From Candidatus Naiadarchaeum limnaeum (GTDB lineage: Archaea > Undinarchaeota > Undinarchaeia > Undinarchaeales > Naiadarchaeaceae): a DNA stretch of 64,000 bases. Every line of letters begins with the position of its first letter. Position 1 is the first letter of the stretch. The position numbers were made by a program, and so were the translations under genes. Below the pieces are notes generated by a model. That model was not told the DNA's origin and did not search any database. It saw nothing but the letters and a program-made list of their open reading frames with translations. The DNA is taken from contig DVAB01000023.1 of the NCBI GenBank assembly GCA_014189685.1, forward strand, positions 15,346 through 79,345. The letters run 5' to 3'. Shown here piece by piece: positions 4,441 to 59,542 of the stretch.

Positions 4441-4501
4441 AAAAGGCATATAAACTATTTTTCAATAATTTTTTCATTAGCGGGAGCGTGGCTAAAAAAT
4501 T

Positions 4502-5683
4502 ATGACGGGAATCGTAATCGTTGGAGCACAATTTGGGGATGAAGGAAAAGGAAAAATTGTTGATTATTTAGTTGACAGACTAAAGATTGACTATGTTGTT
4601 CGTTTCCAAGGCGGAAATAACGCCGGGCACACAGTTGTAGTTGGAAATGAAAAGTTCAAACTTCATCATGTTCCAAGCGGAGTTGTTCAGGGCAAGCAAT
4701 GTTTTCTTGGAAATGGGATGGTAATTGATCCAAAAGTTTTGATTGATGAAATCAATAATTTAAAAGAGCGCGGTATTAATCCAAAATTAACAATAAGTCC
4801 TCTTGCGCATGTAATAACAGAAAAGCACAAGGAATTAGATGCAGCCGATTCCAAAATCGGCACAACTAAAAGAGGAATCGGGCCTGCGTATTCTGACAAA
4901 ATTTCCCGCAGCGGCACGCGTTTTTCTGAACTGAATTCTGTTTATCCCAACTATTATTCTGAGCTCTCAAAATATATTGGAGACGTTTCTCTTAAAGTAA
5001 ATCAAGCTCTTGAGAAAAAGAAAAAAGTTTTATTTGAAGGCGCACAGGGAACTCTCTTAGACATCGATTTCGGAACATATCCATTTGTGACAAGCAGCAA
5101 CACAATTGCAGGCGGTGCTTGCGTGGGCGCAGGAGTTTCTCCAAAGAAAATCTCTTTAATTATTGGAGTTTCAAAAGCATATACAACTCGCGTTGGAAGT
5201 GGGCCATTTCCAACAGAATTAAAAAATGAGGTCGGTGAACAAATTAGAAATAAAGGCGCAGAATTTGGCACAACAACTGGCCGGCCGAGAAGATGCGGGT
5301 GGCTAGATGCGGTTATGCTTAATTATGCAATTCGTCTGAATGGCATTGATAGCATTGCTCTGACTAAGCTGGATATTCTTTCCGGATTAAAAGAATTAAA
5401 AATTTGCACTGCCTATGGATATAATGGAAAAATCTTGCGAACATTCCCTTTTGATGCAAAAATTCTTGAAAAATGCGAACCCATCTATGAAACTTTACAC
5501 GGTTGGCCAGAATTCAGTCACGAAGAATGGCAAAAATTTGCAAAATTGAAATTTGAAAGGTTGCCAAAAGAAATACGCAACTATATTTTGCTAATTGAAA
5601 GGCTTACCAAAACTCCAATATCACTCGTGAGCTTCGGCCCAGACAGGAACGATACTTTTATAAGGCACAAAATTTTAGTTTGA
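4502..5683 (+). CDS. purA: Adenylosuccinate synthetase
   Basis: GAQFGDEGKGKIVDYL, GGNNAGHTVV, GTTKRGIGPAY and GTTTGRPRRCGWLD are hallmark PurA motifs. Confidence 0.85.
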   Translation: MTGIVIVGAQFGDEGKGKIVDYLVDRLKIDYVVRFQGGNNAGHTVVVGNEKFKLHHVPSGVVQGKQCFLGNGMVIDPKVLIDEINNLKERGINPKLTISPLAHVITEKHKELDAADSKIGTTKRGIGPAYSDKISRSGTRFSELNSVYPNYYSELSKYIGDVSLKVNQALEKKKKVLFEGAQGTLLDIDFGTYPFVTSSNTIAGGACVGAGVSPKKISLIIGVSKAYTTRVGSGPFPTELKNEVGEQIRNKGAEFGTTTGRPRRCGWLDAVMLNYAIRLNGIDSIALTKLDILSGLKELKICTAYGYNGKILRTFPFDAKILEKCEPIYETLHGWPEFSHEEWQKFAKLKFERLPKEIRNYILLIERLTKTPISLVSFGPDRNDTFIRHKILV

Positions 5684-6003: not shown

Positions 6004-6579
6004 TTATATCCCAAGCAATTTCGCACCCAAATAAATTATTATCAAATAATTTGCAATTATATGCACCACTGAAAATCTCACAACGCTTACGATTCCATAT
6101 CCCATAAAGAAATAGAAAAATCCTGTAAAAACATCATAACCAACTGTTAAAGCAATCGCAGTTAATCCTAAATTTTGCGCAAAGAATGCATAAGAAAGCG
6201 GCGCAAAATAAGCTATCCCAATAAATCCTAGAGCCGCAACCAAAACATCCTGCGGCCTCTCAATTGTGAAATATCCTGATAGTGTAAAAGCAGCTGCTCC
6301 AACTATTGCCCCGACTAAACTTCCATATCTTATTGAGGAAACAATTGTGAAAACACTAATCAATTCAATTCCAAGCGCAACTGGCATAAATCGTTCTGGA
6401 AAACGCGCAGCCGCACCTATTAAAATAAATCCGACAACAATTCCAAAGTCGCGCAGCGTGAATCTTGTAGTTGTAATTATATATGCAATAAAAATTAGCG
6501 CCGCAACTGTAACCGCGAGATATTTCAGCGTATCTTTTGTTAGTGGTAGTTGCGCCTTGTATCTTTTTGCTTTTGCCAT
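6004..6579 (-). CDS. Polytopic membrane protein of unknown function (paralog of the 49840-50409 and 54171-54713 genes)
   Basis: Five to six hydrophobic helices and no catalytic motifs. Similar size and topology to two other tRNA-adjacent genes in the window. Confidence 0.4.
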   Translation of the reverse strand: MAKAKRYKAQLPLTKDTLKYLAVTVAALIFIAYIITTTRFTLRDFGIVVGFILIGAAARFPERFMPVALGIELISVFTIVSSIRYGSLVGAIVGAAAFTLSGYFTIERPQDVLVAALGFIGIAYFAPLSYAFFAQNLGLTAIALTVGYDVFTGFFYFFMGYGIVSVVRFSVVHIIANYLIIIYLGAKLLGI

Positions 6580-7043
6580 TAAATTTTTTTCAACTCCTTT
6601 TGGTATTCAGGAAATTCAAGCATGAATTCATTTAGTCTCCATATTGGAACTATTGGAATTTTGTCCGCAAACACAATATTTTCCTCAAGAAAAGTTACAA
6701 TTAACGGGTAAATAGCCTTTTTCTTTAACTTTTTAAATTTTTTATAATTTTTTGCGCGCGCAGTTTGATCCTGTGCGGCCTTTTTGAGCGCAGTTGTTTT
6801 TCCAGGTCTCATATTCCACTTTTTGCAATCAATGCAAAGAATTTCATTAAAGCGCGCAGCAATGATATCAACCTCATGCCTTTTTTTATTTAAAGTAAAG
6901 CGCATATTTCTCTGAACCTCGAACCCATGCTCTTCCAAAATGCGCGCAACTATTTGTTCAAATTCCTGCCAAGCGTGCTCCTTTAAAATTTCTTCAATAT
7001 CTTTTCCGCTTGCAATCAAATTTTGAAGTTCTTGGAGGTCCAT
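6579..7043 (-). CDS. PD-(D/E)xK nuclease, Holliday-junction-resolvase Hjc-like
   Basis: E...HEVDIIAARFNEILCIDCKKW reproduces the Hjc E..D(12 aa)(E/D)xK spacing in a 154 aa protein. Confidence 0.45.
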   Translation of the reverse strand: MDLQELQNLIASGKDIEEILKEHAWQEFEQIVARILEEHGFEVQRNMRFTLNKKRHEVDIIAARFNEILCIDCKKWNMRPGKTTALKKAAQDQTARAKNYKKFKKLKKKAIYPLIVTFLEENIVFADKIPIVPIWRLNEFMLEFPEYQKELKKI

Positions 7044-7085: not shown

Positions 7086-7185
7086 AGCGAGGTAGGGCAG
7101 CCTGGAGTGCCCGTCGGGCTCATAGACACACCTTAAAGGGTGTTGAGGGACCCGAAGGTCGTTGGTTCAAATCCAACCCTCGCTA
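7086..7185 (+). tRNA. Initiator tRNA-Met (CAU) with a 25-nt intron at the canonical 37/38 position
   Basis: Acceptor AGCGAGG/CCTCGCT with A1:U72. D-stem GGGC/GCCC. Anticodon stem TCGGG/CCCGA has three consecutive G:C pairs (archaeal initiator hallmark). Loop CTCATA|intron|A. Intron GACACACCTTAAAGGGTGTTGAGGG contains a CACC/GGTG hairpin. T-arm GTTGG-TTCAAAT-CCAAC. CCA not encoded. A T-tract follows. Confidence 0.75.
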
Positions 7186-9826: not shown

Positions 9827-10844
9827 GCCCTTCTGTTTCTTTAAATCCAGAAATTATGTTCATTGCCTGAACTGCTTGTCCAGATGCGCCCTTCATTAAA
9901 TTATCAAGTGCGCTCATGACAACAAGCCTGTTTGAATTTTCATCGCGCTCAAAACCAACATCGCAATAATTTGTTCCGGTTAATAATTTTGGCTCAGGAT
10001 ATCTATAAATTCCATCTTTCTCTTTTACAATTCTTACAAAAGGCTCTCCTGAGTAATATTTTCTGTAAACTTGCCATATATCTTTTTCAGTTAAATTTTT
10101 ATTTAAGAAAACATGGCAAGTGCTTAAAATACCTCGGACTAAATCAACAGCATGTGGACTAAAAGAAATTACTGGCCTATTTCCATTAAAGTTTAGCTCC
10201 TGCTCCATTTCGCCCGTGTGCCTGTGGAAACTTGGCTTGTAAGCTCGAACAACATTTGCGCGCTCAGCATGCATATCTGCTAGGTCTGCTTTGCTCCCGC
10301 TTGCAGAACTTCCAACTTTTGAATCAACAACAATATGTTCTGTTTCAATTAAACCCTCTTTTGCTAATGGATATAGAGCAAGAATTGCACTTGTTGCTAA
10401 ACATCCTGCTCCTGAAATATAATTTGCCTTTTTCATCTCTTCCCTGTGTAATTCTGGAATTCCATAAACAAATTTTTCAATTAATTCAGGGCATTCGTGC
10501 TTGTGTCCATACCACTTCTCATATTCTTTTGGATTTTTTAATCTGAAATCTGCGCTCAAATCAACAATTTTCTCAGCATGCTTTATGTAAGTTCTCATAT
10601 TTTTCATTGCAACACCATGCGGAACTGCTGAAAAAATTAAATCGTAATTTCCAAGCTCTGAATTTTTTATGAATTTTAATTCAGTTTTTTTTCTTAGATT
10701 TGGATGCACCTTTGAAACAGAATGGCCCGCATTTGAATCAGAAGTTACAGCTTTAATATCAAATTCTGGCTGATTTAATCTTTTCCCCATTAAATTTCTG
10801 CCAGTATATCCACTTGCCCCGACAATTGCCACTTCAATGCTCAT
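9798..10844 (-). CDS. argC: N-acetyl-gamma-glutamyl-phosphate reductase / LysY
   Basis: [20 protein letters not shown] Rossmann N-terminus and catalytic-Cys region [13 protein letters not shown]. Confidence 0.8.
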
Positions 10845-11692
10845 CTTTTTGCTACCCTCAAAACATAATCGATAATTAATTTTGGAAGCTCAGGATTGCT
10901 CTTTATAGTATTTCTGAATTCAGGAGTGTGGTTTATTTCATGGACTAAAAATTCCCCTTCCTTTGCATTTTCCATTAAATCAACAGCTAGAACTCCCCCT
11001 CCAACAGCTTCTGAGGCTTTTGCACAAATTTCTTTTAACTCATTAGTTATTGGGCATGGCTCTGCTCCCCCTCCTCGAGCTGTATTTGTAATCCAGTGCT
11101 TAGAGATTCTGTAAATCGCTGCAACTACTTCATTGTCAATTACAAATGCTCTTATATCGCGGCCCGGTTTTTTTATATACTCCTGTATGTAGAAAACTGA
11201 GTGCACAAATTCCCCAAGGCTCTGCTTGTGTTCTAAGAGAGCTTCTGCTGCCTCTCTATCAGACGCTTTTGCAATCAATCTTCCCCAGCTTCCAGAAACC
11301 GGCTTTAGCACAACAGGATATCCAAACTCTTCAATTGCTTTTAGTGCGCTTTCTTGAGAAAACGCAATCACTGTTTTTGGAGTTGGTACGCCAGCTTTTT
11401 TTAAGAGTAAAGAGGTCCATGCTTTATCTCCACATATAGACGAAACTTTAAAGTTATTCACAGTTGGAACATTGCACTGCTCATAGCATGCGACTGAATA
11501 CAATCCGCGAATAAAAGAAATACTTCTGTTTAAAACAACATCAAACTGAATATTGCAAACTGCAGGATCAATATCGAAAGAACATTCTCTATCGTCCACC
11601 ATTGTAACTTTTGCATTTCTTTTTGCCAGTTCCTCAAGTAGCATTTTCTCTTCTTCTCTTATCCTCGAATATAGGAAGCCAACCTTTGTCAT
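10841..11692 (-). CDS. lysX: LysX / ArgX, RimK-type ATP-grasp ligase that loads the amino-acid precursor onto LysW
   Basis: ATP-grasp motifs ([22 protein letters not shown]). Size of about 283 aa. Sits between argC and the homoaconitase genes next to lysW. Confidence 0.75.
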
Positions 11693-25900: not shown

Positions 25901-26989
25901 CTATACTCCTATGTCCGCAATTTGAACTCGCCCAAGTTGAAATTTTCCAATTAAACCTTTTTTAAACCTTCCTAAACAAATCACTAAATCCGTATTTACA
26001 ACTACATTTTTTTCTTCTCCAGAATCTGGATTTAATCCAGACGGAACATCAATTGCAACTTTTATTTCAAATTCATTTAATTTTCTAATTGCAGATGCAA
26101 ATGGCTCTCCAATCTCTCCTCTAACACCTGTCCCAAAAATTCCATCAACTACAATTTCACCACTTGTGCTTTCTAAATCTTTTATTTCAATTCCATCATT
26201 TTGTGCGCGCTTGAGATTCATTTTTGCTTCCCAAGTCTGCGGCTGTACAAGCAAGACAATTGAAACTTTTGCTCCCAAACTTTTGAAATAGCGCGCAGCA
26301 ACTAATGCATCGCCGCCATTATTTCCAGGGCCTGCAAAACAAACAACGTTTCTTCTTATTACAGGAAAGAATTCATTTGTTATTCGTGCGATTTCTTTCC
26401 CTGCGTTTTCCATTAATTTTTCAATAGACAATCCTTTTTCAATTGCTTTTTTCTCTAATTCGTGCATTTCATCTCTTGTAACAAAACTTTCTAACTCCCT
26501 ATGCTCTAGTTTTAATCGTTCAACAGTACCACTTTTTAAACCGAATTTTTGCTCAAACGCATGCAAAGTTTCCTGAAAAGAAAGAATTTTTTGGCCAGCA
26601 ACTAAATTATCTCCGTATGAAACAATTTTTTCCTCGACTGTTACTGGAAGCAAATCCTGCACAGGCTCAATTTTTAATGCAAGCGTTTCCTCTTTTGTTA
26701 TTCCAGCGCCAACATGATACTTTGCAATTTTTCTAATTTCCTCTGGCACTGAATAATTTTGCAAAATTTCATATCCAGTTATTCCCTGCCTTACTGAATG
26801 ATCGCGCGCTCGGCCGATATCGTGCAGAAGCGCTCCATATTTTACAAAATCTAAATTAACTTTTACTCCTTTTTGAGTCAATCTATTTGCTAACTCAAGC
26901 GCGGCCTTTTCAACAGTTCTACAGTGCTCTCTAATGTTTTCAGCTAAGCCTTCTTTTTGCCAAATTTTCTGAACTAATTCTTCATTCAT
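25901..26989 (-). CDS. Fusion of HD-domain phosphohydrolase with YjeF_N (NAD(P)H-hydrate epimerase-like) domain
   Basis: The N-terminal ~150 aa carry H...LLHDIGR (HD motif). The C-terminal part carries VVCFAGPGNNGGDALVAAR and GIFGTG, typical of YjeF_N. Confidence 0.6.
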   Translation of the reverse strand: MNEELVQKIWQKEGLAENIREHCRTVEKAALELANRLTQKGVKVNLDFVKYGALLHDIGRARDHSVRQGITGYEILQNYSVPEEIRKIAKYHVGAGITKEETLALKIEPVQDLLPVTVEEKIVSYGDNLVAGQKILSFQETLHAFEQKFGLKSGTVERLKLEHRELESFVTRDEMHELEKKAIEKGLSIEKLMENAGKEIARITNEFFPVIRRNVVCFAGPGNNGGDALVAARYFKSLGAKVSIVLLVQPQTWEAKMNLKRAQNDGIEIKDLESTSGEIVVDGIFGTGVRGEIGEPFASAIRKLNEFEIKVAIDVPSGLNPDSGEEKNVVVNTDLVICLGRFKKGLIGKFQLGRVQIADIGV

Positions 26990-26998
26990 TTTGAAAAA

Positions 26999-27093
26999 TA
27001 GCCCCGAGCAGATTCGAACTGCTGTCTCAGGCTTTCTCTCTCAATCTTTTTGAGACCAGAGGCCCGTATCCTTGGCCGCTAGACGACGGGGCT
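26999..27093 (-). tRNA. tRNA-Gln (CUG) with a 22-nt intron at the canonical 37/38 position
   Basis: Reverse complement: acceptor AGCCCCG/CGGGGCT (A1:U72), D-stem GTCT/GGAT, anticodon stem CGGGC/GCCTG, loop CTCTGG|intron|A, intron TCTCAAAAAGATTGAGAGAGAA with a TCTCAA/TTGAGA hairpin, T-arm AGCAG-TTCGAAT-CTGCT. Confidence 0.65.
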
Positions 27094-28479: not shown

Positions 28480-29271
28480 TTATAGGTCAGATGTTGTTAA
28501 GTATGGAACGTTTAGTTTTTCTAGGACAGAAAGTACTTTATTTCTGGCGTCGCTTTTTATTCCTTTCCAATCGATAACAGCTTTTTTTGCAAAATTTTTT
28601 TCAACTGCCTGCCTTACTGTATTTTCATTCAAAAATTCAGAGGCATATCTAGCTGCGACATGCCCAATGGCGGCTTTTTCATTTTCAATTTGGATTCTAT
28701 TAAAGGAAGCGCAGTAATGTGTCCCTCCAAAAGCTGCATATTTTTCAAATTTTGCGGAAGGCGCTTTTTCGTAAATCTCTTTGATTGCGCGCGCAACTAT
28801 CTCCCCGAGGTCTTTTCTTGACCATTCTTTTTCTGTGCTTCCAATTTCAATAAAAATTAATGGCTTTTCCCAGTTTGTTGGGCCGTGATGAGTGGCTTCC
28901 ATTGTAATATCAAATCCCTCCGGAGCATTTTGTGAAAAATATTGCAGGCCGATTTTTAATGCAGCTGGCCACGTATATGAAAGAGCATTTGGCGCTCCGC
29001 CCAGATCTGCGCTTCCAAAATTACCTGTTGAATGAACAGTTAAAGCAGGTTTTTTTGTTTCGCTTCTGTGTGTTGAAGCGACTATTAAATAATCGGTATC
29101 ATTTACTTCTTGGAACATTTTTTCCAATTCTTTTTGAGTTGTGAACAAAAGAGATTTTGGGGATTGAACTAATAAATTACCTAATCCAATTTCGCGCAGA
29201 TTGTTTGCAATGTTTGTTGCCGCTGGATCATCTCTCCAATAAAGGACTTTTACAGAACTCATTTTATACAA
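28480..29271 (-). CDS. dtdA: D-aminoacyl-tRNA deacylase, archaeal DtdA type
   Basis: ASTHRSETKKPALTVHSTGN, MEATHHGPT, FIEIGSTEKEW, GGTHY and VIDWKG align with archaeal DtdA as I remember it. Confidence 0.75.
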   Translation of the reverse strand: MYKMSSVKVLYWRDDPAATNIANNLREIGLGNLLVQSPKSLLFTTQKELEKMFQEVNDTDYLIVASTHRSETKKPALTVHSTGNFGSADLGGAPNALSYTWPAALKIGLQYFSQNAPEGFDITMEATHHGPTNWEKPLIFIEIGSTEKEWSRKDLGEIVARAIKEIYEKAPSAKFEKYAAFGGTHYCASFNRIQIENEKAAIGHVAARYASEFLNENTVRQAVEKNFAKKAVIDWKGIKSDARNKVLSVLEKLNVPYLTTSDL

Positions 29272-49763: not shown

Positions 49764-49837
49764 GCCCCTGTGGTCTAACCTGGATATGATGGAAGCTTGC
49801 GGAGCTTTTGATCTGAGTTCAAATCTCAGCAGGGGCA
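49764..49837 (+). tRNA. tRNA-Arg (GCG)
   Basis: Acceptor GCCCCTG/CAGGGGC, anticodon stem GAAGC/GCTTT, loop TTGCGGA, T-arm CTGAG-TTCAAAT-CTCAG, discriminator A. The D-arm is 2 nt longer than minimal and its pairing is imperfect. Confidence 0.55.
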
Positions 49838-49839
49838 TC

Positions 49840-50409
49840 CTATCCAAATACGCTTATCACAGTTGCGGCAAAAGAAGTTAGCAGGAAATAGTTAACACTT
49901 AAATTTAGAAAAGAAAGCATTATATGTTTTATTAAGGGCTCCGGTGAGAAAAAAGCCTTAACAATATTTCCACCGATATATTTACCAACTATTATTCCAA
50001 TCATCCCAAACAGGACAAAATTTTCCACAGGGATAAAAGCTCCAAAAATTCCCAGTGCTGTTAGATAAACCGAATCGTAAATTGTAAGCATTGGCAACGG
50101 ATAACTTCCGCCAAGAATTTTGCTCATTCTCCAAATCAAGATCGTTGATAAAATTCCTACCAGCGCACCGGCCTGCCAACCAAACATGTGCCCTCCAACC
50201 AATGTTAAAAAAGAGTGAAACCCAAGAAGCATATTTCTAGAGAACGGTGTTGAGCGGCTAAAAGTAACCAATAAAATTATTGCAGAAACGCTAAGGGCGC
50301 TTTTTATTCCAAATAGCACTGGAATAACAAAGATAGCTATTAATCCTATTAACTCAATCGCACTGCTTATTTTTATGAACGATTTTTCTTTCATTCTTCC
50401 AAGGGGCAA
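49840..50409 (-). CDS. Polytopic membrane protein, paralog of the 54171-54713 gene
   Basis: 189 aa with five or more TM helices. FSRSTP / LTLVGGHMFG matches FSRANS / IIVIAHLHGA in the paralog. Confidence 0.4.
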   Translation of the reverse strand: MPLGRMKEKSFIKISSAIELIGLIAIFVIPVLFGIKSALSVSAIILLVTFSRSTPFSRNMLLGFHSFLTLVGGHMFGWQAGALVGILSTILIWRMSKILGGSYPLPMLTIYDSVYLTALGIFGAFIPVENFVLFGMIGIIVGKYIGGNIVKAFFSPEPLIKHIMLSFLNLSVNYFLLTSFAATVISVFG

Positions 50410-50459
50410 AGCTATTCCAAAGAAATCGTATTTAATTGTTTCTATTGATGTTAAATGAG

Positions 50460-50533
50460 CGCTGCCGACGAGATTCGAACTCGCATGAGCAGACTTAGGA
50501 GGTCTGTGCCTGTCCAGGTTAGGCTACGGCAGC
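50460..50533 (-). tRNA. tRNA-Arg (CCU)
   Basis: Reverse complement: acceptor GCTGCCG/CGGCAGC, D-stem GCCT/AGGC, anticodon stem CAGAC/GTCTG, loop CTCCTAA, T-arm GCGAG-TTCGAAT-CTCGT. Confidence 0.7.
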
Positions 50534-50645
50534 AAAATTATTCTCGTCAAAGAAGCACTTAAACTTTTACATTCTCACTGGAATCTCAATACCTAGGCTA
50601 CAGGAGCACGATATATATATCACTTTAGCTATAAATTAATTAAAA

Positions 50646-51611
50646 ATGGGTGCTGACTTTAGCGATGCAATAATTCAACAAGCTACATCTATTTCTGAGA
50701 CTTTGGCTAAAGCCAGAAATGCTGTCCCTCAACTAAAAGACGTTAATTCTTTACTTAGGCAGATAATAAAATTATCGAAAGAGACAAGTGCTTTTGGGAA
50801 AAAAGCAAAGCAAATGACGATGAAACATACTTTTGACTTTTATAAAGATATTGTAGTTTATACTCCTGATGCAATTTTTAGGTTAATTAAAGACAAAGAC
50901 GGGCGGTATGAGAAGAGCGAACTTTTGAGAGAGCTATCTTTTTTTGAAAGGCGTGCGGTTCAAAAATATAGCTCAGAATTTTTAAGAATAACAGAAGCGC
51001 TTTCTAAGATTCAAATGCTCGGAGATAAATGGGAAGGACGGAAATTAATCCCAGGAGAACTTAGGAATGTGCTTTATTCAATGATTTTATCTGCAAAGAG
51101 GGCTTACAAAGAAACAAAACCCACGCATGAAAGCAAAAAAGCCTTTGACGACTCTATTATTACTTTCTTGGATAAACTTACGGCTGAACTTAAAAGTGGG
51201 TTAGATAGTTTGGAGATGCAAATAACAAGTGGCACTTTGAGACTAGATAAAAAGTCTGCCGGAGCAGTAAGCGAATTAAATAAATTACTTTCATGGCGTC
51301 TTAAGCTTGAAAGGAATAGGAGATGGGATGATATATTAGGGGCATTTTATTTTCGTATTGGGTCGTATATTATTTGGGCGTTATTGCTTTTTATAATCTT
51401 TCTTGTAATATCAGTGATTGGCTTTTTCATGTACACTTTACAGGGAGTTAATGTAGTTGTTCCTCTTGGGACCTATGCTTTATTTGGTGCTATAGTAAGT
51501 CAAGTACTTTCTTTCGTAAAGCTTATTTATGGTTTTGCTTCTGAGTGGTCTAAGACAAGAAAAGGTAAAAGAATGTCGGCTATCCAATCAAAATACTTCG
51601 GCAATGGCTAG
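50646..51611 (+). CDS. Hypothetical protein: long helical/coiled-coil cytoplasmic domain with two C-terminal TM helices
   Basis: 321 aa. Hydrophobic IIWALLLFIIFLVISVIGFF and LGTYALFGAIVSQVLSF near the C-terminus. Confidence 0.35.
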   Translation: MGADFSDAIIQQATSISETLAKARNAVPQLKDVNSLLRQIIKLSKETSAFGKKAKQMTMKHTFDFYKDIVVYTPDAIFRLIKDKDGRYEKSELLRELSFFERRAVQKYSSEFLRITEALSKIQMLGDKWEGRKLIPGELRNVLYSMILSAKRAYKETKPTHESKKAFDDSIITFLDKLTAELKSGLDSLEMQITSGTLRLDKKSAGAVSELNKLLSWRLKLERNRRWDDILGAFYFRIGSYIIWALLLFIIFLVISVIGFFMYTLQGVNVVVPLGTYALFGAIVSQVLSFVKLIYGFASEWSKTRKGKRMSAIQSKYFGNG

Positions 51612-52176
51612 AAAAAAGGAAGCTTTAGCACAAGCCAAGGCAATTAAAGAAGCTTATTTTGCACAAAAGGTTGGAAAGCTTCCAATTTATGAGTTTAATG
51701 GTTATATGCTCACCATTATTTTCGCGGGTTTAGATGATATAGACTATATCAAAAAAGAATTAGCAAAATTAGGGGTCGAAATCAAAGAAGAGAAGGAACA
51801 GAAATTAATAGGGCTTGTTGATTTTATCAATCGAATTTTAAGTATACTACAGCGCTATTCCGAGCGAAATAAACTTGATATCGGGAAAAGTTTTTGTGAA
51901 AAACTTTTGAAGACTGTATTGAACTACAATACTTTTGTTATGGCATATATTGATTTCCTAGGAAAACAAGGTTTTCTCTCCAATATGAGTTTTCTTTTAG
52001 GTTTTAGTGGGATTTACTCTGCTCAAAGGAAAAATTTAAGTAAGCACATAAAGGAAGCCGGTATAAAAAGAAGACACATAATTGAAATAGGGCGAATAAT
52101 TTTTGGAGATCGAAACAAAAACATAACTAAAATGTTTTCTCTTTTAGAAAAAATCCATCCAAAACCTTTGCCGTAA
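51607..52176 (+). CDS. Hypothetical protein
   Basis: Start chosen at MARKKEALAQ, overlapping the upstream stop by 4 nt. No motif recognised. Confidence 0.3.
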   Translation, partial: ARKKEALAQAKAIKEAYFAQKVGKLPIYEFNGYMLTIIFAGLDDIDYIKKELAKLGVEIKEEKEQKLIGLVDFINRILSILQRYSERNKLDIGKSFCEKLLKTVLNYNTFVMAYIDFLGKQGFLSNMSFLLGFSGIYSAQRKNLSKHIKEAGIKRRHIIEIGRIIFGDRNKNITKMFSLLEKIHPKPLP

Positions 52177-52179
52177 TAT

Positions 52180-53958
52180 CTACATCCTTTCTGGAATCTC
52201 AATACCTAGCAAATAAAGGCAGTTTTTCAAAACATTAAATGTTGCTTGAACTACTGCAACTCTTGCATTTATCAAATCTTTATCAGGCGCGTTTAAAACA
52301 GGCAAATTATTATAGAACAGATTAAACTTTTCTGCCAATTTATGCGCATAGTTTGCAAGCGTATGAACTCTGTAATGCGTTGCCGTCTCTTGAATAATTA
52401 ATGGAAACTTTGCTAAATGCTTAACCAGTTCGTGCTCCTCCTCCTGTTCAAGCAAATTAAATTTAACTTCGCTCAATTTTATTGATTCAGCTTTTTCCAA
52501 AATTCTTTTTGCGCGCACAGCAGCATATTGTATATAAGGCCCTGTTTCTCCCTCAAATTCTAAGGCCCTATCCCAATCAAAGAAAATTGTTTTTGTATTA
52601 CTAATGTTAAGAATTGAAAATTTAATTGCGCCTATTGCAATCTGCATTGCAGTATTCTTCTGCCCCTCAAGGGGAAGCTCAGGATTTCTGCTTGTTACTT
52701 CTGCAAGCGCCTTTTGAAACATTTTTTCTTTTAGCTCTCTGTATGTAATTGTGAGTCCTTCTCTTGAGCTCATTTTTTCCCCTTGCAGAGTAATCAAGTC
52801 AAAAGTTAAGTTGAAAGATTTTTTTACTTGTTTAAATCCCATCAGTTCAAGAGTTTTGAAGAGCTGCTGGAAATAAAGCCTCTGCTCACTTCCTGTAACA
52901 ATAATCGTGCGGTCAATTTTGTATTTCTTGAATTTTTCTTCTGCCAAAGCAAGATCTCGAGTTGAATAAAGAGTTGTTCCATCGCTCTTTAATAAAAGAA
53001 AAGTATCCAAATCATATTTTTTAAGCTCAACAACAACTGCTCCGGCACTTTTTTTTGCAATTTTTTTCTTTTGTAGTTCTTGGACAAGATCCTTTCCACG
53101 CTTATCCATTTGGCTCTCAAAAAAATAATAATTAAATTTGACTCCTAAATCTTTGTAAATCTCTTCATACTCATCCAAACTCCACTGTCTTGTCCTTTTC
53201 CATAAATCCATTAGCTCACTGTCCTTTCCCTCTTCCAATTTTTTCTGTAATTTTTCAACTTCTGCTTTGTGTTCTGGACTTTCTTCCAATTTTTTAGAGG
53301 CTTCTGCATAAATTCTCCCTAACCATTCTCCTCTATTTGAGTTTGGAGTATCTCCTCTGTGGAAAGTTTGATAAGCCCATAGACATTTTGCAACATGCGC
53401 TCCGATATCTCCCTGATAATTCGCGCGCAAAACCTCGTATCCATTATATTCAAGAATTCTGCTCAAACTTTCCCCCAAAAGCGTACCTCTCAAATGCCCA
53501 ATGTGAAAAGCTTTGTGCGTATTTGCTTGGGAAAACTCAACCATTATCTTTTCTTTTCTCTTTTCAGCCCTGCTATAATCTTTTTCAAAAGTTTCTTTTA
53601 TCACTTCTTTTGCAAAAGCTCCTCTATTAAGGAAAAAGTTTACATATGCACCAGCAAGACCAACCTTCTTTGCAATTGAAGGCTTTTTGGTATTTGCTAG
53701 GATTTTCTCAGCAATATCCCGCGGGGAAACTTTTTTTTGCCTTCCAAGCTGAAAAGAAATACTGCAGGCCAAATCCCCCATTTTTGCGCTTGGGGGCTCT
53801 TCAATAGAATTATCTAAATCGCCTGTTTTTACTTTTAACTTCAATTTTTTTAGAGTTCCCTCAAGAGAATTAAAAACATCTTCCCTTGCTTTCATCCAGG
53901 CGGTTTTCATAATTCGTTTATAATGAGACTTTGCTTTTAAACTTTTACAAAATTCCAT
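52180..53958 (-). CDS. argS: Arginyl-tRNA synthetase
   Basis: Class I HIGH motif (FHIGHLRG), DALR-type anticodon-binding C-terminus, 592 aa. Confidence 0.85.
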   Translation of the reverse strand: MEFCKSLKAKSHYKRIMKTAWMKAREDVFNSLEGTLKKLKLKVKTGDLDNSIEEPPSAKMGDLACSISFQLGRQKKVSPRDIAEKILANTKKPSIAKKVGLAGAYVNFFLNRGAFAKEVIKETFEKDYSRAEKRKEKIMVEFSQANTHKAFHIGHLRGTLLGESLSRILEYNGYEVLRANYQGDIGAHVAKCLWAYQTFHRGDTPNSNRGEWLGRIYAEASKKLEESPEHKAEVEKLQKKLEEGKDSELMDLWKRTRQWSLDEYEEIYKDLGVKFNYYFFESQMDKRGKDLVQELQKKKIAKKSAGAVVVELKKYDLDTFLLLKSDGTTLYSTRDLALAEEKFKKYKIDRTIIVTGSEQRLYFQQLFKTLELMGFKQVKKSFNLTFDLITLQGEKMSSREGLTITYRELKEKMFQKALAEVTSRNPELPLEGQKNTAMQIAIGAIKFSILNISNTKTIFFDWDRALEFEGETGPYIQYAAVRAKRILEKAESIKLSEVKFNLLEQEEEHELVKHLAKFPLIIQETATHYRVHTLANYAHKLAEKFNLFYNNLPVLNAPDKDLINARVAVVQATFNVLKNCLYLLGIEIPERM

Positions 53959-54023
53959 TTAATTTGGATTTATCAATTCTCTTGTAATTTTTGCCTGCGC
54001 CTATGAAACTCAGATTAAATGAA

Positions 54024-54138
54024 TGGACCCGAGGGGATATTCAGCTCTGCTGAATACACCGAGCGTCAGCGAGAGCGTTTGAACCCCCATTAAGAGGTCC
54101 GAAGCCTCTTGTCCTAATCCAGGTTAGACCACGGGTCC
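54024..54138 (-). tRNA. tRNA-Arg (UCG) with a 40-nt intron at a non-canonical T-loop (59/60) position
   Basis: Reverse complement: acceptor GGACCCG/CGGGTCC, D-stem GTCT/GGAC, anticodon stem AGAGG/CCTCT, loop CTTCGGA, T-stem GGGGG...CCCCT split by a ~40-nt insert (approx. CGCTCTCGCTGACGCTCGGTGTATTCAGCAGAGCTGAATA) with an 8-bp TATTCAGC/GCTGAATA hairpin. Confidence 0.55.
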
Positions 54139-54170
54139 GTAATAATTAGGGAATAAACGCACTTATCTAT

Positions 54171-54713
54171 TTACCGTAAAAAAGCCATTATCTGCGGCAG
54201 AAAATTTCTCAAAATAAGATAGTTAAATATGATATTTATTACGCTGAGGGGAAGCCTTCTTGTTATAGGGTCCATAAATACATAAACGCGCACAAATCCA
54301 ACAAGCCCATTTCCGAATATTATAATTGTCCACAAACTGTATTCTAAAAGATTTGCAGCCGGGATTAGAGCTGCGATGTAAGATAATATGACTAGATAAA
54401 CAGTATCCAGCAAAATCCATGGCGGCTTTTGAAAACTTCCAAGGTATTTTCCTGTCATGTTTATGAGCGGTGCACTTGCAATTGCAACAAAAGCAGCTGG
54501 AATAGCCCCATGCAAATGCGCTATTACTATTATAAGCACGCTGTGGAATTCTATTTTTAAATTATCATAGAGCGAATTCGCGCGGCTAAAGATTACTAAG
54601 AAAGTTGCGAGAATTGTTATAAAAGCAATTTTTGGGAAAAATAGCAGTGGGACAAAAAGAATTACGAGTAACATAATCAGGTCAAATCTCAGCAAACTTC
54701 TTGCGGTGGTCAT
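54171..54713 (-). CDS. Polytopic membrane protein, paralog of the 49840-50409 gene
   Basis: 180 aa with five or more TM helices. See the paralog alignment under 49840-50409. Confidence 0.4.
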   Translation of the reverse strand: MTTARSLLRFDLIMLLVILFVPLLFFPKIAFITILATFLVIFSRANSLYDNLKIEFHSVLIIVIAHLHGAIPAAFVAIASAPLINMTGKYLGSFQKPPWILLDTVYLVILSYIAALIPAANLLEYSLWTIIIFGNGLVGFVRVYVFMDPITRRLPLSVINIIFNYLILRNFLPQIMAFLR

Positions 54714-54790
54714 TTTTTTTGTAATTTAACATCGGTTTATAAATTCCCTTGCAGTTTGTCCCTGCACCCGCGATGCCGATGTTAAATTAG

Positions 54791-54864
54791 TGCCCCCAAG
54801 GGGATTTGAACCCCTACCAATAGCTTAGAAGGCTATCGCCCTATCCAGGTTAGGCTATGGGGGC
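54791..54864 (-). tRNA. tRNA-Arg (UCU)
   Basis: Reverse complement: acceptor GCCCCCA/TGGGGGC, D-stem GCCT/GGGC, anticodon stem ATAGC/GCTAT, loop CTTCTAA, T-arm AGGGG-TTCAAAT-CCCCT, discriminator A. Confidence 0.7.
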
Positions 54865-54953: not shown

Positions 54954-55259
54954 ATGGCAGAATTTATTGTTGCAAAGATTGATGAAATTCCTAATGGAAC
55001 CGGAAAAGTTGTATTTGCAGGAGACAAGCCTATAGCACTTTTTAATATAAATGGAACTTTTTATGCTATTGACAATACATGCGCGCACAGAGGCGGCCCT
55101 CTTGGCGAAGGAGATTTGGGTGGTACAATAGTTACATGCCCTTGGCATGGCTGGCAGTTTGATGTAACAACCGGAGTCTCTCCATTTGGGCCAACAGTTG
55201 AGAAGTATGAAGTTAAGCTTGACTCACAGACACAGGAGATAAAAGTTGTTGTTCCATAG
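54954..55259 (+). CDS. Rieske [2Fe-2S] ferredoxin-like protein
   Basis: CAHRGGPL...CPWHGWQF Rieske ligand boxes. Start trimmed to MAEFIV. Confidence 0.6.
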   Translation: MAEFIVAKIDEIPNGTGKVVFAGDKPIALFNINGTFYAIDNTCAHRGGPLGEGDLGGTIVTCPWHGWQFDVTTGVSPFGPTVEKYEVKLDSQTQEIKVVVP

Positions 55260-58200
55260 AATAATAATCTTTCAAAGATTTAACGCTAAATTCGCCTTTT
55301 TGCATTTTCTTGATTGCTTCTAAAGCAGCAAATGCTCCTGAAATTGTTGTTATGCATGGAATTTTTGCAGTTATGCATGCGCGCCTTATCTTAAAACCAT
55401 CTCTACTCGCAATTCCTCCTGTTGTAGGTGTATTTATCACAAGGTCAACCTCGCCATTCCTAATCAAATCAACAATGTTTGGCGCTCCTTCAGAAGCCTT
55501 CAGTACTTTTTTTACATAAATGTTGTCAAGCGAAATTACTTTGGCAGTGTTTCCAACAGAAATTATCTCAAATCCCAACTCTGAAAATCCTTTCGCAAGT
55601 TTTGAAACATATCTTTTGTCATTTCTGTTTACAGCAAAGAATACGCTGCCCATTTTTGGCAGATTAACATACGCCCCTAACTGTGCTTTGTAAAAAGCAG
55701 TTCCGAAATCATAATCAATTCCCATAGATTCCCCTGTAGATTTCATCTCAGGCCCTAATCTTATATCTGCGCCTGGAAGTTTATCAAATGGAAATACAAC
55801 ACTTTTTACAGAAACATGTTTTGGAGTTATCTCTCTGTTTGCCAAGCCTAATTCTTCCAAACTTTTTCCCATTATCGCTTTTGTTCCAATTTTCGCAAGT
55901 TGCACTCCGATTGCTTTGCTGATGAATGGAACAGTTCTGCTCGACCTTGGATTTGCTTCCAAAACATAAACAATCCCCTCCTTAACAGCGTATTGGATAT
56001 TTATCATTCCAATAACTTTTAACTCAAGCGCAATTTTTTGTGTGTATTCTTTTACAGTTTCAATAACTTCTTTGCTCAAAGTTTGCGGCGGGACAACACA
56101 ACTCGAATCTCCAGAATGAATCCCTGCTTCCTCGATATGCTCCATCACTCCGCCAATAAAAACATTTTTTCCATCGCAAACAGCATCCACATCCAATTCA
56201 ATCGCATCCTGCAAAAATTTATCAATTAAAATTGGGTGCTCTTTTGAGACGCGCACAGCTTCTCTCATATAAATTTCCAAATCCTCATCTGTGTGAACAA
56301 TTTCCATCGCGCGTCCTCCAAGAACATAGCTCGGCCGAACTAAAACAGGATACCCCAATTTCCTTACAATCTGTTTGGCTTCAACATAGGAATTGGCAAT
56401 CCCATATCTCGCTTGAGGGATTCTTAATTTTCTTAGAACTTTTGTAAACAAATCACGGTTTTCAGCCTTATCCATATCCTCCGGAGTTGTACCAAGAACC
56501 TTTACTCCAGCTTCTTTGAGTGGGATTGAAAGATTTACGGCTGTCTGACCTCCAAATTGTGTTATAACGCCTAAAGGCTTTTCAATTTCGCAGACCGCGA
56601 GAACATCTTCCAAGTGCAAGGGCTCAAAATACAATCTATCTGATGTATCGTAGTCTGTTGAAACAGTTTCAGGATTGTTATTAATTATAATTGCTTCATA
56701 TCCTAATTCTCTCAAAGCCCAAACTGCATGCACAGTGCAGTAATCAAACTCAATTCCCTGCCCAATCCTTATTGGCCCGCTGCCAAGAATTATTACTTTT
56801 TTCTTTTCAGAGCTTTTTGTGTCAGTTTTTGTTCCATGAGTGCTATAATAATAAGGAGTTTTCGCCTCAAACTCAGCAGCGCAAGTATCAACCATTTTAT
56901 AATTGCGCAAAAATTCTTTTTTCAACTTTTTGTGCGTTATATTTTCAATCTGTTCATAAATAAATCCAAATTTTTTTGCATATTCAGTTATTTGCTTTAA
57001 CTTTTCTCTTCTTGACTTTTTCAAAAGTTTTTCGATTTCAACTATATGTTGTACTTTCTCTACAAACCACCTATCGATCTTTGTTAATTCAGAAATTTCC
57101 TTTACAGGGAATCCTGATTTAAGCGCGCTAACAATATAGAAAAGTCTTTTATGCGTTGGGACGATTAAATGGTGTCTCAACTCTTCTTTGCTTATCTTCT
57201 CATCTTCACGATCTCCAACTAATCCAATTTTATCTATATCCAGAGAGCGAATTGCTTTTTGCAAGGATTCCTCAAAATTTCTTCCAATTGCCATCACTTC
57301 TCCAGTTGATTTCATCTGCGTTCCAATAGTTCGATCTGCAGTTGAAAACTTCTCGAATGGCCAGCGCGGAATTTTTGTTACAATATAATCCAGGGCTGGC
57401 TCAAAACTTGCCTTTGTTTCTTTTGTAATTGGGTTTTGAATCTCATCCAGAGTTAACCCAATTGCAATTTTTGCCGCGATTAAAGCTATTGGATAACCAG
57501 TTGCCTTGCTTGCTAAAGCACTTGAACGAGAAACTCGCGGATTTACCTCAATAACATAATAATTTTCAGAATTTGGATCTAAAGCAAATTGTATATTGCA
57601 TCCGCCTTCAACTCCAAGCGCGCGAATAATTTTAATTGAAGCTGTTCGTAGCATCTGGTACTCATAATCAGTTAAAGTTTGAGAAGGCGCAACAACAATT
57701 GATTCTCCTGTGTGAATTCCAACTGCATCAAAATTTTCCATATTACAAACTGTAATGCAATTATCAGCAGAGTCACGCATAACCTCGTACTCAATTTCTT
57801 TCCAGCCTGCAACACTTTTTTCAATTAAAACCTGGTGAATCCTACTCAGTGCAAGTCCATTCGAAGCAATTCTATCTAAATCAAAGGGATTTTCTGCAAC
57901 TCCGCTTCCAGTTCCCCCTAAAGTGTAAGCAGGCCGCACAATAACTGGGTAGTCTATTTGTTCAGCATAATCCAGGGCATCTTTTACAGTTGTTACAGCT
58001 TTTGAAGGCGGAACTGGCTCTCTGATTTTTATCATTAATTCTCTAAACTTATCTCTGTCCTCTCCAGCGTGGATTGCACTTACTGGAGTTCCGAGAACTT
58101 TTACTTTATATTTTTCTAAAATTCCTTTTTCAGAAAGCTCTGCTGTTAAATTAAGCGCAGTTTGCCCGCCCATTCCAGAAATAATCCCATCTGGCCGCTC

Positions 58201-58440
58201 CTTTGCAATTATTTTTTCAATGCTCTCAATTGTTAATGGCTCAATATAAGTAGCATCTGCCATATCCGAATCAGTTTGTATTGTTGCAGGATTTGAATTA
58301 ACCAATACCGTTTTTACTCCCTCTTCGCGCAAAGACTTCAAAGCTTGGCTCCCTGAGTAATCAAACTCAGCTGCCTGCCCGATTATAATTGGGCCGCTTC
58401 CGATTATCAAAGCTTTCTTTATGTTTTCGCTTTTAGACAT
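55213..58440 (-). CDS. carB: Carbamoyl-phosphate synthase large subunit
   Basis: Duplicated ATP-grasp halves and an MGS-like C-terminal domain, 1075 aa. Confidence 0.9.
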   Translation of the reverse strand: MSKSENIKKALIIGSGPIIIGQAAEFDYSGSQALKSLREEGVKTVLVNSNPATIQTDSDMADATYIEPLTIESIEKIIAKERPDGIISGMGGQTALNLTAELSEKGILEKYKVKVLGTPVSAIHAGEDRDKFRELMIKIREPVPPSKAVTTVKDALDYAEQIDYPVIVRPAYTLGGTGSGVAENPFDLDRIASNGLALSRIHQVLIEKSVAGWKEIEYEVMRDSADNCITVCNMENFDAVGIHTGESIVVAPSQTLTDYEYQMLRTASIKIIRALGVEGGCNIQFALDPNSENYYVIEVNPRVSRSSALASKATGYPIALIAAKIAIGLTLDEIQNPITKETKASFEPALDYIVTKIPRWPFEKFSTADRTIGTQMKSTGEVMAIGRNFEESLQKAIRSLDIDKIGLVGDREDEKISKEELRHHLIVPTHKRLFYIVSALKSGFPVKEISELTKIDRWFVEKVQHIVEIEKLLKKSRREKLKQITEYAKKFGFIYEQIENITHKKLKKEFLRNYKMVDTCAAEFEAKTPYYYSTHGTKTDTKSSEKKKVIILGSGPIRIGQGIEFDYCTVHAVWALRELGYEAIIINNNPETVSTDYDTSDRLYFEPLHLEDVLAVCEIEKPLGVITQFGGQTAVNLSIPLKEAGVKVLGTTPEDMDKAENRDLFTKVLRKLRIPQARYGIANSYVEAKQIVRKLGYPVLVRPSYVLGGRAMEIVHTDEDLEIYMREAVRVSKEHPILIDKFLQDAIELDVDAVCDGKNVFIGGVMEHIEEAGIHSGDSSCVVPPQTLSKEVIETVKEYTQKIALELKVIGMINIQYAVKEGIVYVLEANPRSSRTVPFISKAIGVQLAKIGTKAIMGKSLEELGLANREITPKHVSVKSVVFPFDKLPGADIRLGPEMKSTGESMGIDYDFGTAFYKAQLGAYVNLPKMGSVFFAVNRNDKRYVSKLAKGFSELGFEIISVGNTAKVISLDNIYVKKVLKASEGAPNIVDLIRNGEVDLVINTPTTGGIASRDGFKIRRACITAKIPCITTISGAFAALEAIKKMQKGEFSVKSLKDYYSMEQQLLSPVSVSQA

Positions 58441-59542
58441 TTTTTCCCACCATTTTTAAAAATTTGTCAAACAAATACTTATTGTCCTGCGGCCCTGGCC
58501 CGCCCTCGGGGTGATACTGAACAGAAAAAATTGGCTTATTTTTGTGTGTTAAGCCTTCGATTGAGTTATCATTCAAATTAAACTTTGTTGCTTTGAAATT
58601 CGTACCTTCTAAACTTTGTGAATCAACAGCATATCCATGATTCTGGGTTGTTATATGAACAGTTCCTGTTTCGAAATCTTTTACAGGATGATTTACTCCC
58701 CGATGCCCGAATTTTAATTTGTAAGTTTTCGCGCCTGCAGCTAAAGCTAAAATTTGATGCCCTAAGCAAATCCCAAAAATCGGAATATCACTTTCGTTTA
58801 TTAGTTTGCGAACAGTTTCAATTACATAAGTCGGCTTTGCAGGGTCTCCTGGGCCGTTTGAAATTATAATTCCCTCTGGATTATATCTCATAATTTTTTC
58901 AAAACTAGTATTTGCTGGTACAACAGTTATTCTGCAACCCCTCCTCTCCAAACTTCGCAAAATGTTGTATTTAACTCCTGTATCAATTAAAACAATATTT
59001 CGCGTTCCTTTTTTATTCCAAACTTCTGGCTTTGAGACCGTAACATATGGTAGCAAATCCTCGGAATCCGGATGCGGCCGCAAATTTACTTCTTCAGAAA
59101 CTTTTTTAATATCCACATCTGATTTGCAAATTACTCCTTTCATAACTCCTTTCGTTCTAATCACTTGTGTTAGCGCGCGTGTATCAACATTGTAAAGTCC
59201 AGGAATTTTGTATTCCTTCAAAAACTTGCCCAAAGTTTCAAAAGCCTTAAAGTGAGAAGGCAGTTCACAGAGCTCACTTATTACAAATCCGCGCACTTGA
59301 ACTCGTTTTGATTCAAAATTTTCTTTATTAGTTGCATAATTTCCAACTAAAGGGTAGGTCATTGTTAAAATTTGGCCAGCATAACTTGGGTCAGTTAAAG
59401 CTTCCTGGTATCCAGTCATTGCTGTGTTAAAAACGACCTCTCCAAAAGTGTTAGGGCTGAAAAAACCAAAGGGAATCCCCTCAAAAAAAGCGCCGTTTTC
59501 CAGCACTAAAAGTGCTTTATTTTTGTTTTTTTGCGCAGGCAT
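58433..59542 (-). CDS. carA: Carbamoyl-phosphate synthase small (glutaminase) subunit
   Basis: GICLGHQ and FSVQYHPE GATase triad motifs. 8-nt overlap with the carB start. Confidence 0.85.
   Translation of the reverse strand: MPAQKNKNKALLVLENGAFFEGIPFGFFSPNTFGEVVFNTAMTGYQEALTDPSYAGQILTMTYPLVGNYATNKENFESKRVQVRGFVISELCELPSHFKAFETLGKFLKEYKIPGLYNVDTRALTQVIRTKGVMKGVICKSDVDIKKVSEEVNLRPHPDSEDLLPYVTVSKPEVWNKKGTRNIVLIDTGVKYNILRSLERRGCRITVVPANTSFEKIMRYNPEGIIISNGPGDPAKPTYVIETVRKLINESDIPIFGICLGHQILALAAGAKTYKLKFGHRGVNHPVKDFETGTVHITTQNHGYAVDSQSLEGTNFKATKFNLNDNSIEGLTHKNKPIFSVQYHPEGGPGPQDNKYLFDKFLKMVGKNV

Follow-up and report, generated by a model that had tools for sequence, protein, structure and literature searches.

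Linkage of the arginyl-tRNA synthetase gene to four tRNA-Arg genes in Candidatus Naiadarchaeum limnaeum and other Undinarchaeota

A stretch of 64,000 nucleotides from Candidatus Naiadarchaeum limnaeum (contig DVAB01000023.1, positions 15,346 to 79,345; hereafter the window) was analyzed for argS, the gene coding for arginyl-tRNA synthetase (ArgRS), and the tRNA-Arg genes around it. Within 5.1 kb, the window holds argS plus four surrounding tRNA-Arg genes with the anticodons GCG, CCU, UCG, and UCU. A preliminary description made from the sequence alone had placed four tRNA-Arg genes here and all four were recovered, three by ARAGORN and Rfam and the UCG gene after removal of an intron, where the default tools fail. 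The genes of the block are:

49764..49837, plus strand: tRNA-Arg(GCG), no intron (ARAGORN and Rfam, 56.9 bits)
49840..50394, minus strand: memA, a 184-aa polytopic membrane protein paralogous to memB, with an energy-coupling factor (ECF) S-component fold and from a lineage-restricted family
50460..50533, minus strand: tRNA-Arg(CCU), no intron (ARAGORN and Rfam, 54.6 bits)
52180..53910, minus strand: argS, arginyl-tRNA synthetase of 576 aa with three Pfam domains and a conserved ATG
54024..54138, minus strand: tRNA-Arg(UCG), its T-loop split at position 59/60 by a 40-nt intron (54038-54077)
54171..54713, minus strand: memB, a 180-aa membrane protein with an ECF-transporter S-component fold
54791..54864, minus strand: tRNA-Arg(UCU), no intron in the window species (ARAGORN and Rfam, 69.8 bits)

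The scores of the GCG, CCU, and UCU genes (54.6-69.8 bits) were above the Rfam RF00005 gathering score of 29 bits, and the ARAGORN structures of all four genes displayed an arginine anticodon (NCG or YCU) in a 7-nt loop and preceded by U33. The unspliced UCG gene was called by neither ARAGORN nor Rfam at default settings because the 40-nt intron splits its T-loop, and a permissive Rfam pass gave a partial tRNA match of 24.2 bits that failed in the T-arm. The minus strand at this locus held an entire tRNA-Arg(UCG) with a broken T-loop; in silico deletion of ~40 nt led to an ARAGORN call of tRNA-Arg(tcg), and splicing at 59/60 generated, again in silico with ARAGORN, the canonical T-loop UUCAAAU and a full cloverleaf. 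An explicit motif finder identified the intron as a strict hBHBh' motif, GGGGG-UUCA-[AAC]-GCUCU...AGAGC-UGAA-[UAU]-CCCCU, with a 3-4-3 bulge-helix-bulge geometry (h=5 bp, H=4 bp, h'=5 bp), and the gene folded with z=-3.3. Across the entire window, Rfam at permissive settings listed five tRNAs (six counting the missed UCG gene) and no additional tRNA-Arg; "all four isoacceptors" denotes those found within the 64-kb window, which is part of a 97-kb contig, and a fifth (CCG) is possible elsewhere in the genome. Under standard wobble rules the four tRNAs suffice for the six arginine codons, with GCG reading CGU and CGC, UCG reading CGA and CGG, UCU reading AGA and AGG, and CCU reading AGG. The tRNA-Arg genes of the window do not encode the 3' CCA, which is encoded in the UCU and GCG genes of L004 and the GCG gene of L085 (loci of relatives are labeled with L throughout).

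The predicted ArgRS matched Arg_tRNA_synt_N (E=2.6e-15), tRNA-synt_1d (1.4e-55), and DALR_1 (1.4e-32), all passing the curated cut-offs, and its translation contained a HIGH motif (FHIGHLRG) and a KMSK-like motif (KMSSREG). The gene had been described as spanning 52180-53958; its identity stood and its start did not, as the alignment of box and ATG from six lineages set the start at the conserved ATG at 53910. The box in question is:

53934..53946, minus strand: promoter-like box AAAAGTTTAAAAG, lying some 24-36 nt ahead of the argS ATG

In the UCG-argS spacer alignment, TTTAAAA preceded by AAAG was invariant upstream of argS in the window, L098, L083, L003, L099, and L004, and the TTTAAAA box was additionally found in L106 and L107. 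A/T-rich TATA-like boxes conserved among close relatives were also present about 25-45 nt upstream of each tRNA. The spacing upstream of argS suggests that the gene may have its own promoter and a near-leaderless mRNA, and the conserved boxes at argS and each tRNA point to separate promoters, leaving the co-regulated arginine-decoding regulon suggested earlier weakly supported.

Relatives were collected by a scan of GTDB species-representative ArgRS sequences, from contigs encoding homologs of the membrane proteins, and by a metagenome scan with ArgRS alignment, and intron-split tRNA genes were rescued by brute-force deletion of every possible spacer segment followed by ARAGORN re-calling. The sampled Undinarchaeota comprised 11 lineages from both orders, across which the block order recurred, with ArgRS 54-86% identical to that of the window, and the loci counted for shared order were L003, L004, L083, L085, L088-L090, L094-L096, and L098-L107. 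The full order UCU-x-UCG-argS-CCU-x-GCG, where x is a slot for protein genes, was identified in six lineages: the window, L083, L003 (counted despite a UCU anticodon in its UCG-position gene), L085, the L004 group (L004, L088, L089, L100, and L101), and L102. The incomplete contigs L098, L099/L104, L103, L105, L106, and L107 carried tRNA-Arg genes in the expected slots. Exceptions were found at the argS/CCU junction, where L095 has no CCU gene after argS and L099 has an unrelated reverse-strand coding sequence and no CCU gene before the contig end. Dispersed tRNA-Arg genes, the pattern that would speak against the linkage, were not what the relatives displayed, since they keep these tRNAs linked to argS. 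In addition, spliced tRNAs clustered as ((UCG,GCG),(CCU,UCU)), each isoacceptor grouping with its own orthologs, and the four-gene set is therefore older than the divergence of the lineages. The GCG gene of the window was 96-100% identical to its orthologs in L083, L003, and L085; it converges on memA and is inverted compared to the co-directional layout of L004, L085, L102, and L103.

Among 78 argS loci of other lineages (other DPANN, Patescibacteria, Firmicutes, and Elusimicrobia), a single one had a tRNA-Arg within 10 kb of argS, which bears out the earlier view that the linkage is unusual. No tRNA-Arg was found near argS in 14 archaeal loci by an Rfam re-scan and a check by hand of one suspicious call. 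An intron-bearing tRNA just upstream of argS in L005 (Aenigmarchaeota) was considered as a mislabeled tRNA-Arg and rejected, being truly tRNA-Gln(UUG). The clustering in Undinarchaeota is far beyond chance. The flanks of the block differed by lineage. Upstream of it, the window has carAB and a Rieske gene; L103 has an inverted carB on the downstream side, and L004 has neither carAB nor the Rieske gene and an aspartate/ornithine carbamoyltransferase gene downstream. Genes of carbamoyl-phosphate metabolism adjoin the block both in the window (carA and carB, 55213-59542) and in L004 (the carbamoyltransferase gene, 10128-11135), which may be a coincidence or a loose arginine/pyrimidine neighborhood.

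The tRNA-Gln and tRNA-iMet genes of the window had unrelated neighbors and no cognate enzymes, ruling out cognate enzyme-tRNA linkage as a general habit of the genome. A fifth "tRNA-Arg(tct)" called by ARAGORN at 26998-27093 (minus strand) was rejected, as excision of its 22-nt canonical bulge-helix-bulge intron leaves tRNA-Gln(CUG). This gene is followed 9 nt on, past a TTTTT run, by a co-oriented open reading frame (ORF; 25901-26989) with HD and YjeF_N domains, and a D-aminoacyl-tRNA deacylase gene (28480-29271, minus strand) lies ~1.4 kb away from it. The initiator-like tRNA-Met(CAU) at 7086-7185 (plus strand) displayed A1-U72, three G-C anticodon-stem pairs, and a 25-nt canonical intron. 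Both the iMet and Gln introns were likewise strict bulge-helix-bulge structures according to the motif finder.

The intron content of the block is shifting fast among close relatives. The 59/60 intron of the UCG gene measured 40 nt in the window, about 37 nt in L083, 49 nt in L003, and 192 nt in L106, and the gene was intron-free in L085, L098, L099, L107, and L004. The UCU gene has no intron in the window, a T-loop intron in L003, and both D-loop and T-loop introns in L085, and an anticodon-loop intron in the GCG gene was present in L003 and L085 only. The 192-nt intron in the UCG gene of L106 (701-967) is highly structured and has no long ORF inside. In the UCU gene of L085 (~4497-4770), the D-loop intron is 24 nt long with a strict bulge-helix-bulge and the T-loop intron ~140 nt, and a second orphan 3' exon of tRNA-Arg(UCU), ATCCCCTCGGGAGCGC, lies ~130 nt further downstream (~4880). 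A short duplicate of the 5' end of tRNA-UCG, GGGCCTGTGGTC, and its complement were found ~75 nt upstream of the gene in L107 (~676-690) and in L085 (upstream of 6163), and this duplicate may be a rearrangement scar. These introns resemble the non-canonical bulge-helix-bulge introns of Thermoproteales and DPANN (PMC4090602, PMC5829648, PMC3239211) in their positions outside the anticodon loop, the hBHBh' motif, the occurrence of several in one gene (L085 UCU), and quick gain and loss, with nothing different in kind. Raised tRNA disruption has been reported in DPANN lineages (PMC5829648), and the Undinarchaeota introns are new instances rather than a new kind. As T-loop, D-loop, or multiple introns hide several tRNA-Arg genes of the block from ARAGORN or Rfam at default settings, low reported tRNA counts, such as the 15 tRNAs for one Naiadarchaeales metagenome-assembled genome (MAG) (PMC7414124, Table 1), may partly be annotation artifacts, and "missing" arginine tRNAs are no proof of codon loss without an intron-aware search.

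In L003 (9875-9998), the gene at the UCG position combines a UCG-type body with the anticodon loop CUUCUGA (anticodon UCU), where a sequencing error is possible given that this MAG has only ~4x coverage. The codons CGA and CGG dropped in L003 from 7 to 1 and from 7 to 3, respectively, in four orthologous genes (Fisher p=0.024), and the two neighboring lineages L106 and L107 retain UCG. A selected argS-tRNA linkage, in which arginine decoding would be re-tuned as a unit by exchanging or switching anticodons in co-evolution with the synthetase and L003 would be a snapshot of such rewiring, is a speculative and improbable account of these data.

The contents of the x slots varied among the lineages. 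In the L004 group, which is of the Undinarchaeales type, the UCU-UCG slot is taken by a gene for an AlaXM-like alanyl-tRNA editing protein. L085 carries a tandem pair of memB-type genes and a CCU-GCG spacer of only 8 nt, and memA of L003 is reduced to its last 38 codons; the tRNA scaffold thus does not depend on the membrane genes. The proposed paralogy of the two membrane proteins in the window was confirmed (33% identity over 169 aa, BLASTP E=3e-20). The L004-type membrane proteins branched outside the memA and memB clades in a weak neighbor-joining tree with a distant root, which tentatively suggests that the membrane gene may have been duplicated within the Naiadarchaeales, after the tRNA scaffold existed.

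The segment between argS and tRNA-Arg(CCU) displayed three further features:

50568..50596, minus strand: orphan copy of the last 9 argS codons and stop, a repeat arm at the ancestral argS/tRNA-CCU junction
50646..51611, plus strand: inserted ORFan of 321 aa with C-terminal transmembrane helices, no family match
51604..52176, plus strand: inserted ORFan of 190 aa, gene called on the source contigs, no family match

The two further uncharacterized proteins already placed between the tRNAs and argS correspond to genes called on the source contigs, the second starting at 51604. Exactly these two ORFs lie between the arms (50597-52180) of a 29-nt direct repeat (family D4; 26/29 identical) whose copies, at the argS 3' end (52181-52209) and at 50568-50596, are 1,613 bp apart. 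The spacer behind the 50568-50596 copy is that found behind argS in L083, and this copy is therefore the ancestral junction with tRNA-CCU. This 1.6-kb two-ORF segment was absent from L003, L004, L083, and L085, which have an empty site, and a second strain carries it at the identical position. In this strain (L097, a 7.4-kb contig) the gene calls for argS and the M48 peptidase span only 474 aa and 135 aa, respectively, and a Fic-domain gene is close by, differences that could be due to strain-level rearrangement or an assembly problem. The ORFans had no Pfam, PHROG, NCBIfam, or PADLOC match, no integrase, recombinase, or mobile-element protein was found, and the 321-aa ORFan had only a 99%-identical self-match among 5.8e9 proteins. 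Composition gave no signal of foreign origin, the insertion being host-like. The segment looks like a site-specific insertion that would have regenerated the argS 3' end, though without a recombinase. Site-specific integrative elements insert at the 3' ends of tRNA or protein genes, and a duplicated att core restores the target gene. The insertion shares with such elements the 29-nt repeat spanning the argS stop codon, the intact argS, and presence or absence between species, and differs from them in having no integrase, a cargo of two ORFans without mobile-element signature, and host-like composition.

Two copies of a palindromic element were also identified in the block:

54718..54789, minus strand: palindromic element copy 1, between tRNA-UCU and memB, with a 14-bp perfect terminal inverted repeat (I18) and z=-6.0
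53952..54021, minus strand: palindromic element copy 2, between tRNA-UCG and the argS promoter box, identified by core-motif search and alignment

This ~68-nt palindrome, similar to a miniature inverted-repeat transposable element (MITE) and with terminal inverted repeats of 10-14 bp, lies 2-3 nt behind tRNA-UCU and tRNA-UCG, and its core motif occurred twice in the window compared to 0 expected. Further copies were found in L003 (9153-9290), L098 (501-572), and L106 (~21-86 and ~968-1035). The sequence of the arms varies between copies with the pairing kept, and L003 has one copy nested in another. The palindrome was not found in the same spacers of L083, L099, and L004, nor in the UCG-argS spacer of L003.

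The reading preferred here, with a rough probability of 0.7, is an ancestral, vertically inherited Undinarchaeota gene-order block of adjacent, separately promoted genes. The ancestral order would have been UCU-x-UCG-argS-CCU-x-GCG, all on one strand, including the single ArgRS gene and four tRNA-Arg genes reading the six arginine codons. In the window species, the block is modified in four respects: the inverted GCG gene, the 40-nt UCG intron, the two palindrome copies, and the inserted ORFan pair with its duplicated 29 nt. Each tRNA and argS would be transcribed from its own TATA-like box, the UCG precursor would be cut at the bulge-helix-bulge by the archaeal splicing endonuclease and then religated, and all four tRNAs would be charged by ArgRS; expression, splicing, and charging in the window species are predictions from the sequence. 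The x slots would house passengers, namely the S-component-like membrane proteins in the Naiadarchaeales and, in the marine lineage, an editing protein of the AlaX type. Tight packing with few permissive break points is the probable reason why the block persists, and selection for ArgRS/tRNA dosage balance may contribute. Several points weigh against this reading. An external promoter would not fit into some of the spacers (10 nt from the argS stop to CCU in L004, 8 nt between CCU and GCG in L085, and 8 nt between UCG and argS in L095), which makes co-transcription probable for at least a few junctions in certain lineages; separate promoters are a property that we infer only from the conserved boxes. 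The wider synteny is partly kept too (an NTP-transferase gene upstream and DUF3096 downstream), and specific selection on the argS/tRNA linkage is therefore only a possibility. Finally, the archaeal comparison set beyond Undinarchaeota is small (about 15 loci) and the tRNA census covers one 64-kb window of the genome.

The same 8-10 nt junctions favor a true polycistronic tRNA-mRNA unit ("tRNA punctuation"), in which one or a few long transcripts would begin at tRNA promoters and RNase P, RNase Z, and the splicing endonuclease would cut out the tRNAs and thereby free the argS and membrane-protein mRNAs, so that ArgRS and tRNA levels would be coupled. All seven genes of L004 are co-directional with spacers of 7-159 nt, each ancestral protein gene of the window is directly downstream of a co-oriented tRNA (UCU-memB, UCG-argS, CCU-memA), no run of at least five T follows UCU, UCG, or CCU in the window, and the window tRNA-Gln is likewise followed by a co-oriented ORF after 9 nt. 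Such a unit is nevertheless unlikely given the box resembling a TFB recognition element (BRE) and TATA element 24-34 nt upstream of the argS ATG in six lineages, with similar boxes before each tRNA, and given the inverted GCG gene, the opposite-strand insertions (the window ORFans, L099, and L095), and the 70-nt palindromes between tRNA and downstream gene, none of which an obligate co-transcript should tolerate. Co-orientation with spacers too short for promoters was seen in L004 and at single junctions in L085 and L095; in the window, GCG and the inserted ORFan pair lie on the opposite strand from the rest. Mitochondrial polycistronic transcripts are punctuated by tRNAs (reviewed in PMC4394434), and the arginine block resembles them in the close alternation of tRNA and protein genes, on one strand in the least rearranged relative, L004; it differs in its conserved promoter-like boxes and the opposite-strand genes inside.

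The repeated arrangement of a membrane gene between two tRNA-Arg genes had also been taken as a hint of a duplicated unit, which would be a [tRNA-Arg(YCU)-membrane gene-tRNA-Arg(NCG)] module on either side of argS. In its favor, memA and memB are paralogs and the tRNAs pair as this predicts, UCU with CCU and UCG with GCG. That pairing is non-discriminating, since the split between AGR and CGN decoders would give the same result. The L004-type loci have the four tRNAs in order with one membrane gene and the unrelated AlaXM-like gene in the other slot, L085 has its second slot empty beside the tandem memB-type pair, and the weak placement of the L004-type proteins outside both clades also stands against the module. 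Both modules were thus not found wherever the four tRNAs are present (L004-type, L085, and L003), and these loci show a scaffold older than and independent of the membrane-gene duplication, leaving the duplicated unit weakly supported and improbable. Least probable by far is the gathering of tRNAs and passengers by successive mobile-element integrations at tRNA genes. The insertion with its 29-nt direct repeat, the independent strikes at the argS/CCU junction in L095 and L099, the MITE-like palindromes behind two tRNAs, and the orphan tRNA fragments in L085 and L107 are in line with it; however, argS and the four tRNAs show orthology and synteny throughout the phylum, so that the core was vertically inherited, no integrase or mobile-element protein was found, the insertion is not compositionally distinct, and the insertions are lineage-specific additions to a pre-existing cluster. 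The idea of an integration remnant therefore holds for the two inserted genes, with their 29-nt repeat and species-specific presence, and is largely refuted as a cause of the clustering.

The ancestral gene-order block was also compared to known tRNA gene clusters. Prokaryotic tRNA arrays, e.g., in bacteria, likewise have several tRNA genes within a few kb, mix many specificities, and are usually pure tRNA runs (PMC8421152). In contrast, all tRNA genes of the arginine cluster serve a single amino acid, protein genes lie between them, the cognate synthetase gene is part of the cluster, and the arrangement is found phylum-wide. The open-access literature searched held no earlier account of argS/tRNA-Arg linkage or Undinarchaeota tRNA introns, and the source paper only counts tRNAs. 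The argS/tRNA-Arg block is apparently an undescribed gene-order trait, a tRNA gene cluster restricted to one amino acid, and no new mechanism is shown by it. If the linkage holds in complete genomes, it would give a clean phylum-level gene-order marker for Undinarchaeota and would be among the few cases of a synthetase gene beside a cognate tRNA set reading all its codons. It would also offer a natural system for asking whether synthetase-tRNA dosage balance or co-evolution can hold genes together in very small genomes.

The membrane proteins in the slots belong to a family that extends beyond the block and includes a more distant gene in the window:

6004..6579, minus strand: memC, a distantly related third S-component-like protein of the superfamily, encoded away from the cluster and ~500 nt from tRNA-iMet

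This gene, named along with the two paralogs in the preliminary description, proved to be only a remote relative of them (BLASTP E=3e-4 against memB, profile-profile E=3.5e-5); it shares the memA/memB fold and is named an ECF S component by UniRef. Exact matches to memA were HIJ98675.1 and HIK00425.1 (Ca. Naiadarchaeum limnaeum and a Naiadarchaeales MAG), and the memA/memB family, which is confined to the phylum, was small, with 13 clusters in a set of 5.8e9 proteins and 17 representatives in one of 1.84e9. The proteins displayed the characteristic helical membrane fold of S-components of about 160-200 aa. Sequence membership in a curated S-component family was not found, the sole label being the UniRef name of memC; the family had no Pfam, PHROG, or NCBIfam match, and neither profile retrieved a PDB sequence at E<=1. 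Genes for EcfT or EcfA were not identified within the window, in which the sole ORF with a Walker A and an ABC-type signature codes for SMC. Solitary S-components are known. The window proteins differ from the ECF S-components RibU, ThiT, FolT, BioY, CbiM, BtuM, and PanT in lacking detectable curated-family sequence membership and EcfT or EcfA in the window, and in the limitation of their family to one phylum. They represent a previously unrecognized, phylum-restricted branch of S-component-like transporters. A role as importers of queuosine or archaeosine precursors was considered and rejected, as the supplement of the source paper reports tRNA-guanine(15) transglycosylase to be absent from DPANN except two other phyla. 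A further member of the membrane family, P0016 (L092/L093), has tRNA-Ile(GAU) on one side and, on the other, a tRNA-Met(CAU) whose intron measures 60 nt, and membrane-family genes are thus tRNA-flanked in three different tRNA contexts; P0016 was considered as a memC ortholog and rejected. Between memC and tRNA-iMet, the minus strand at 6579-7043 encodes a 154-aa PD-(D/E)xK-type nuclease with Mrr_cat, NERD, and Hjc matches and a weak PADLOC match to CARF_PDDEXK.

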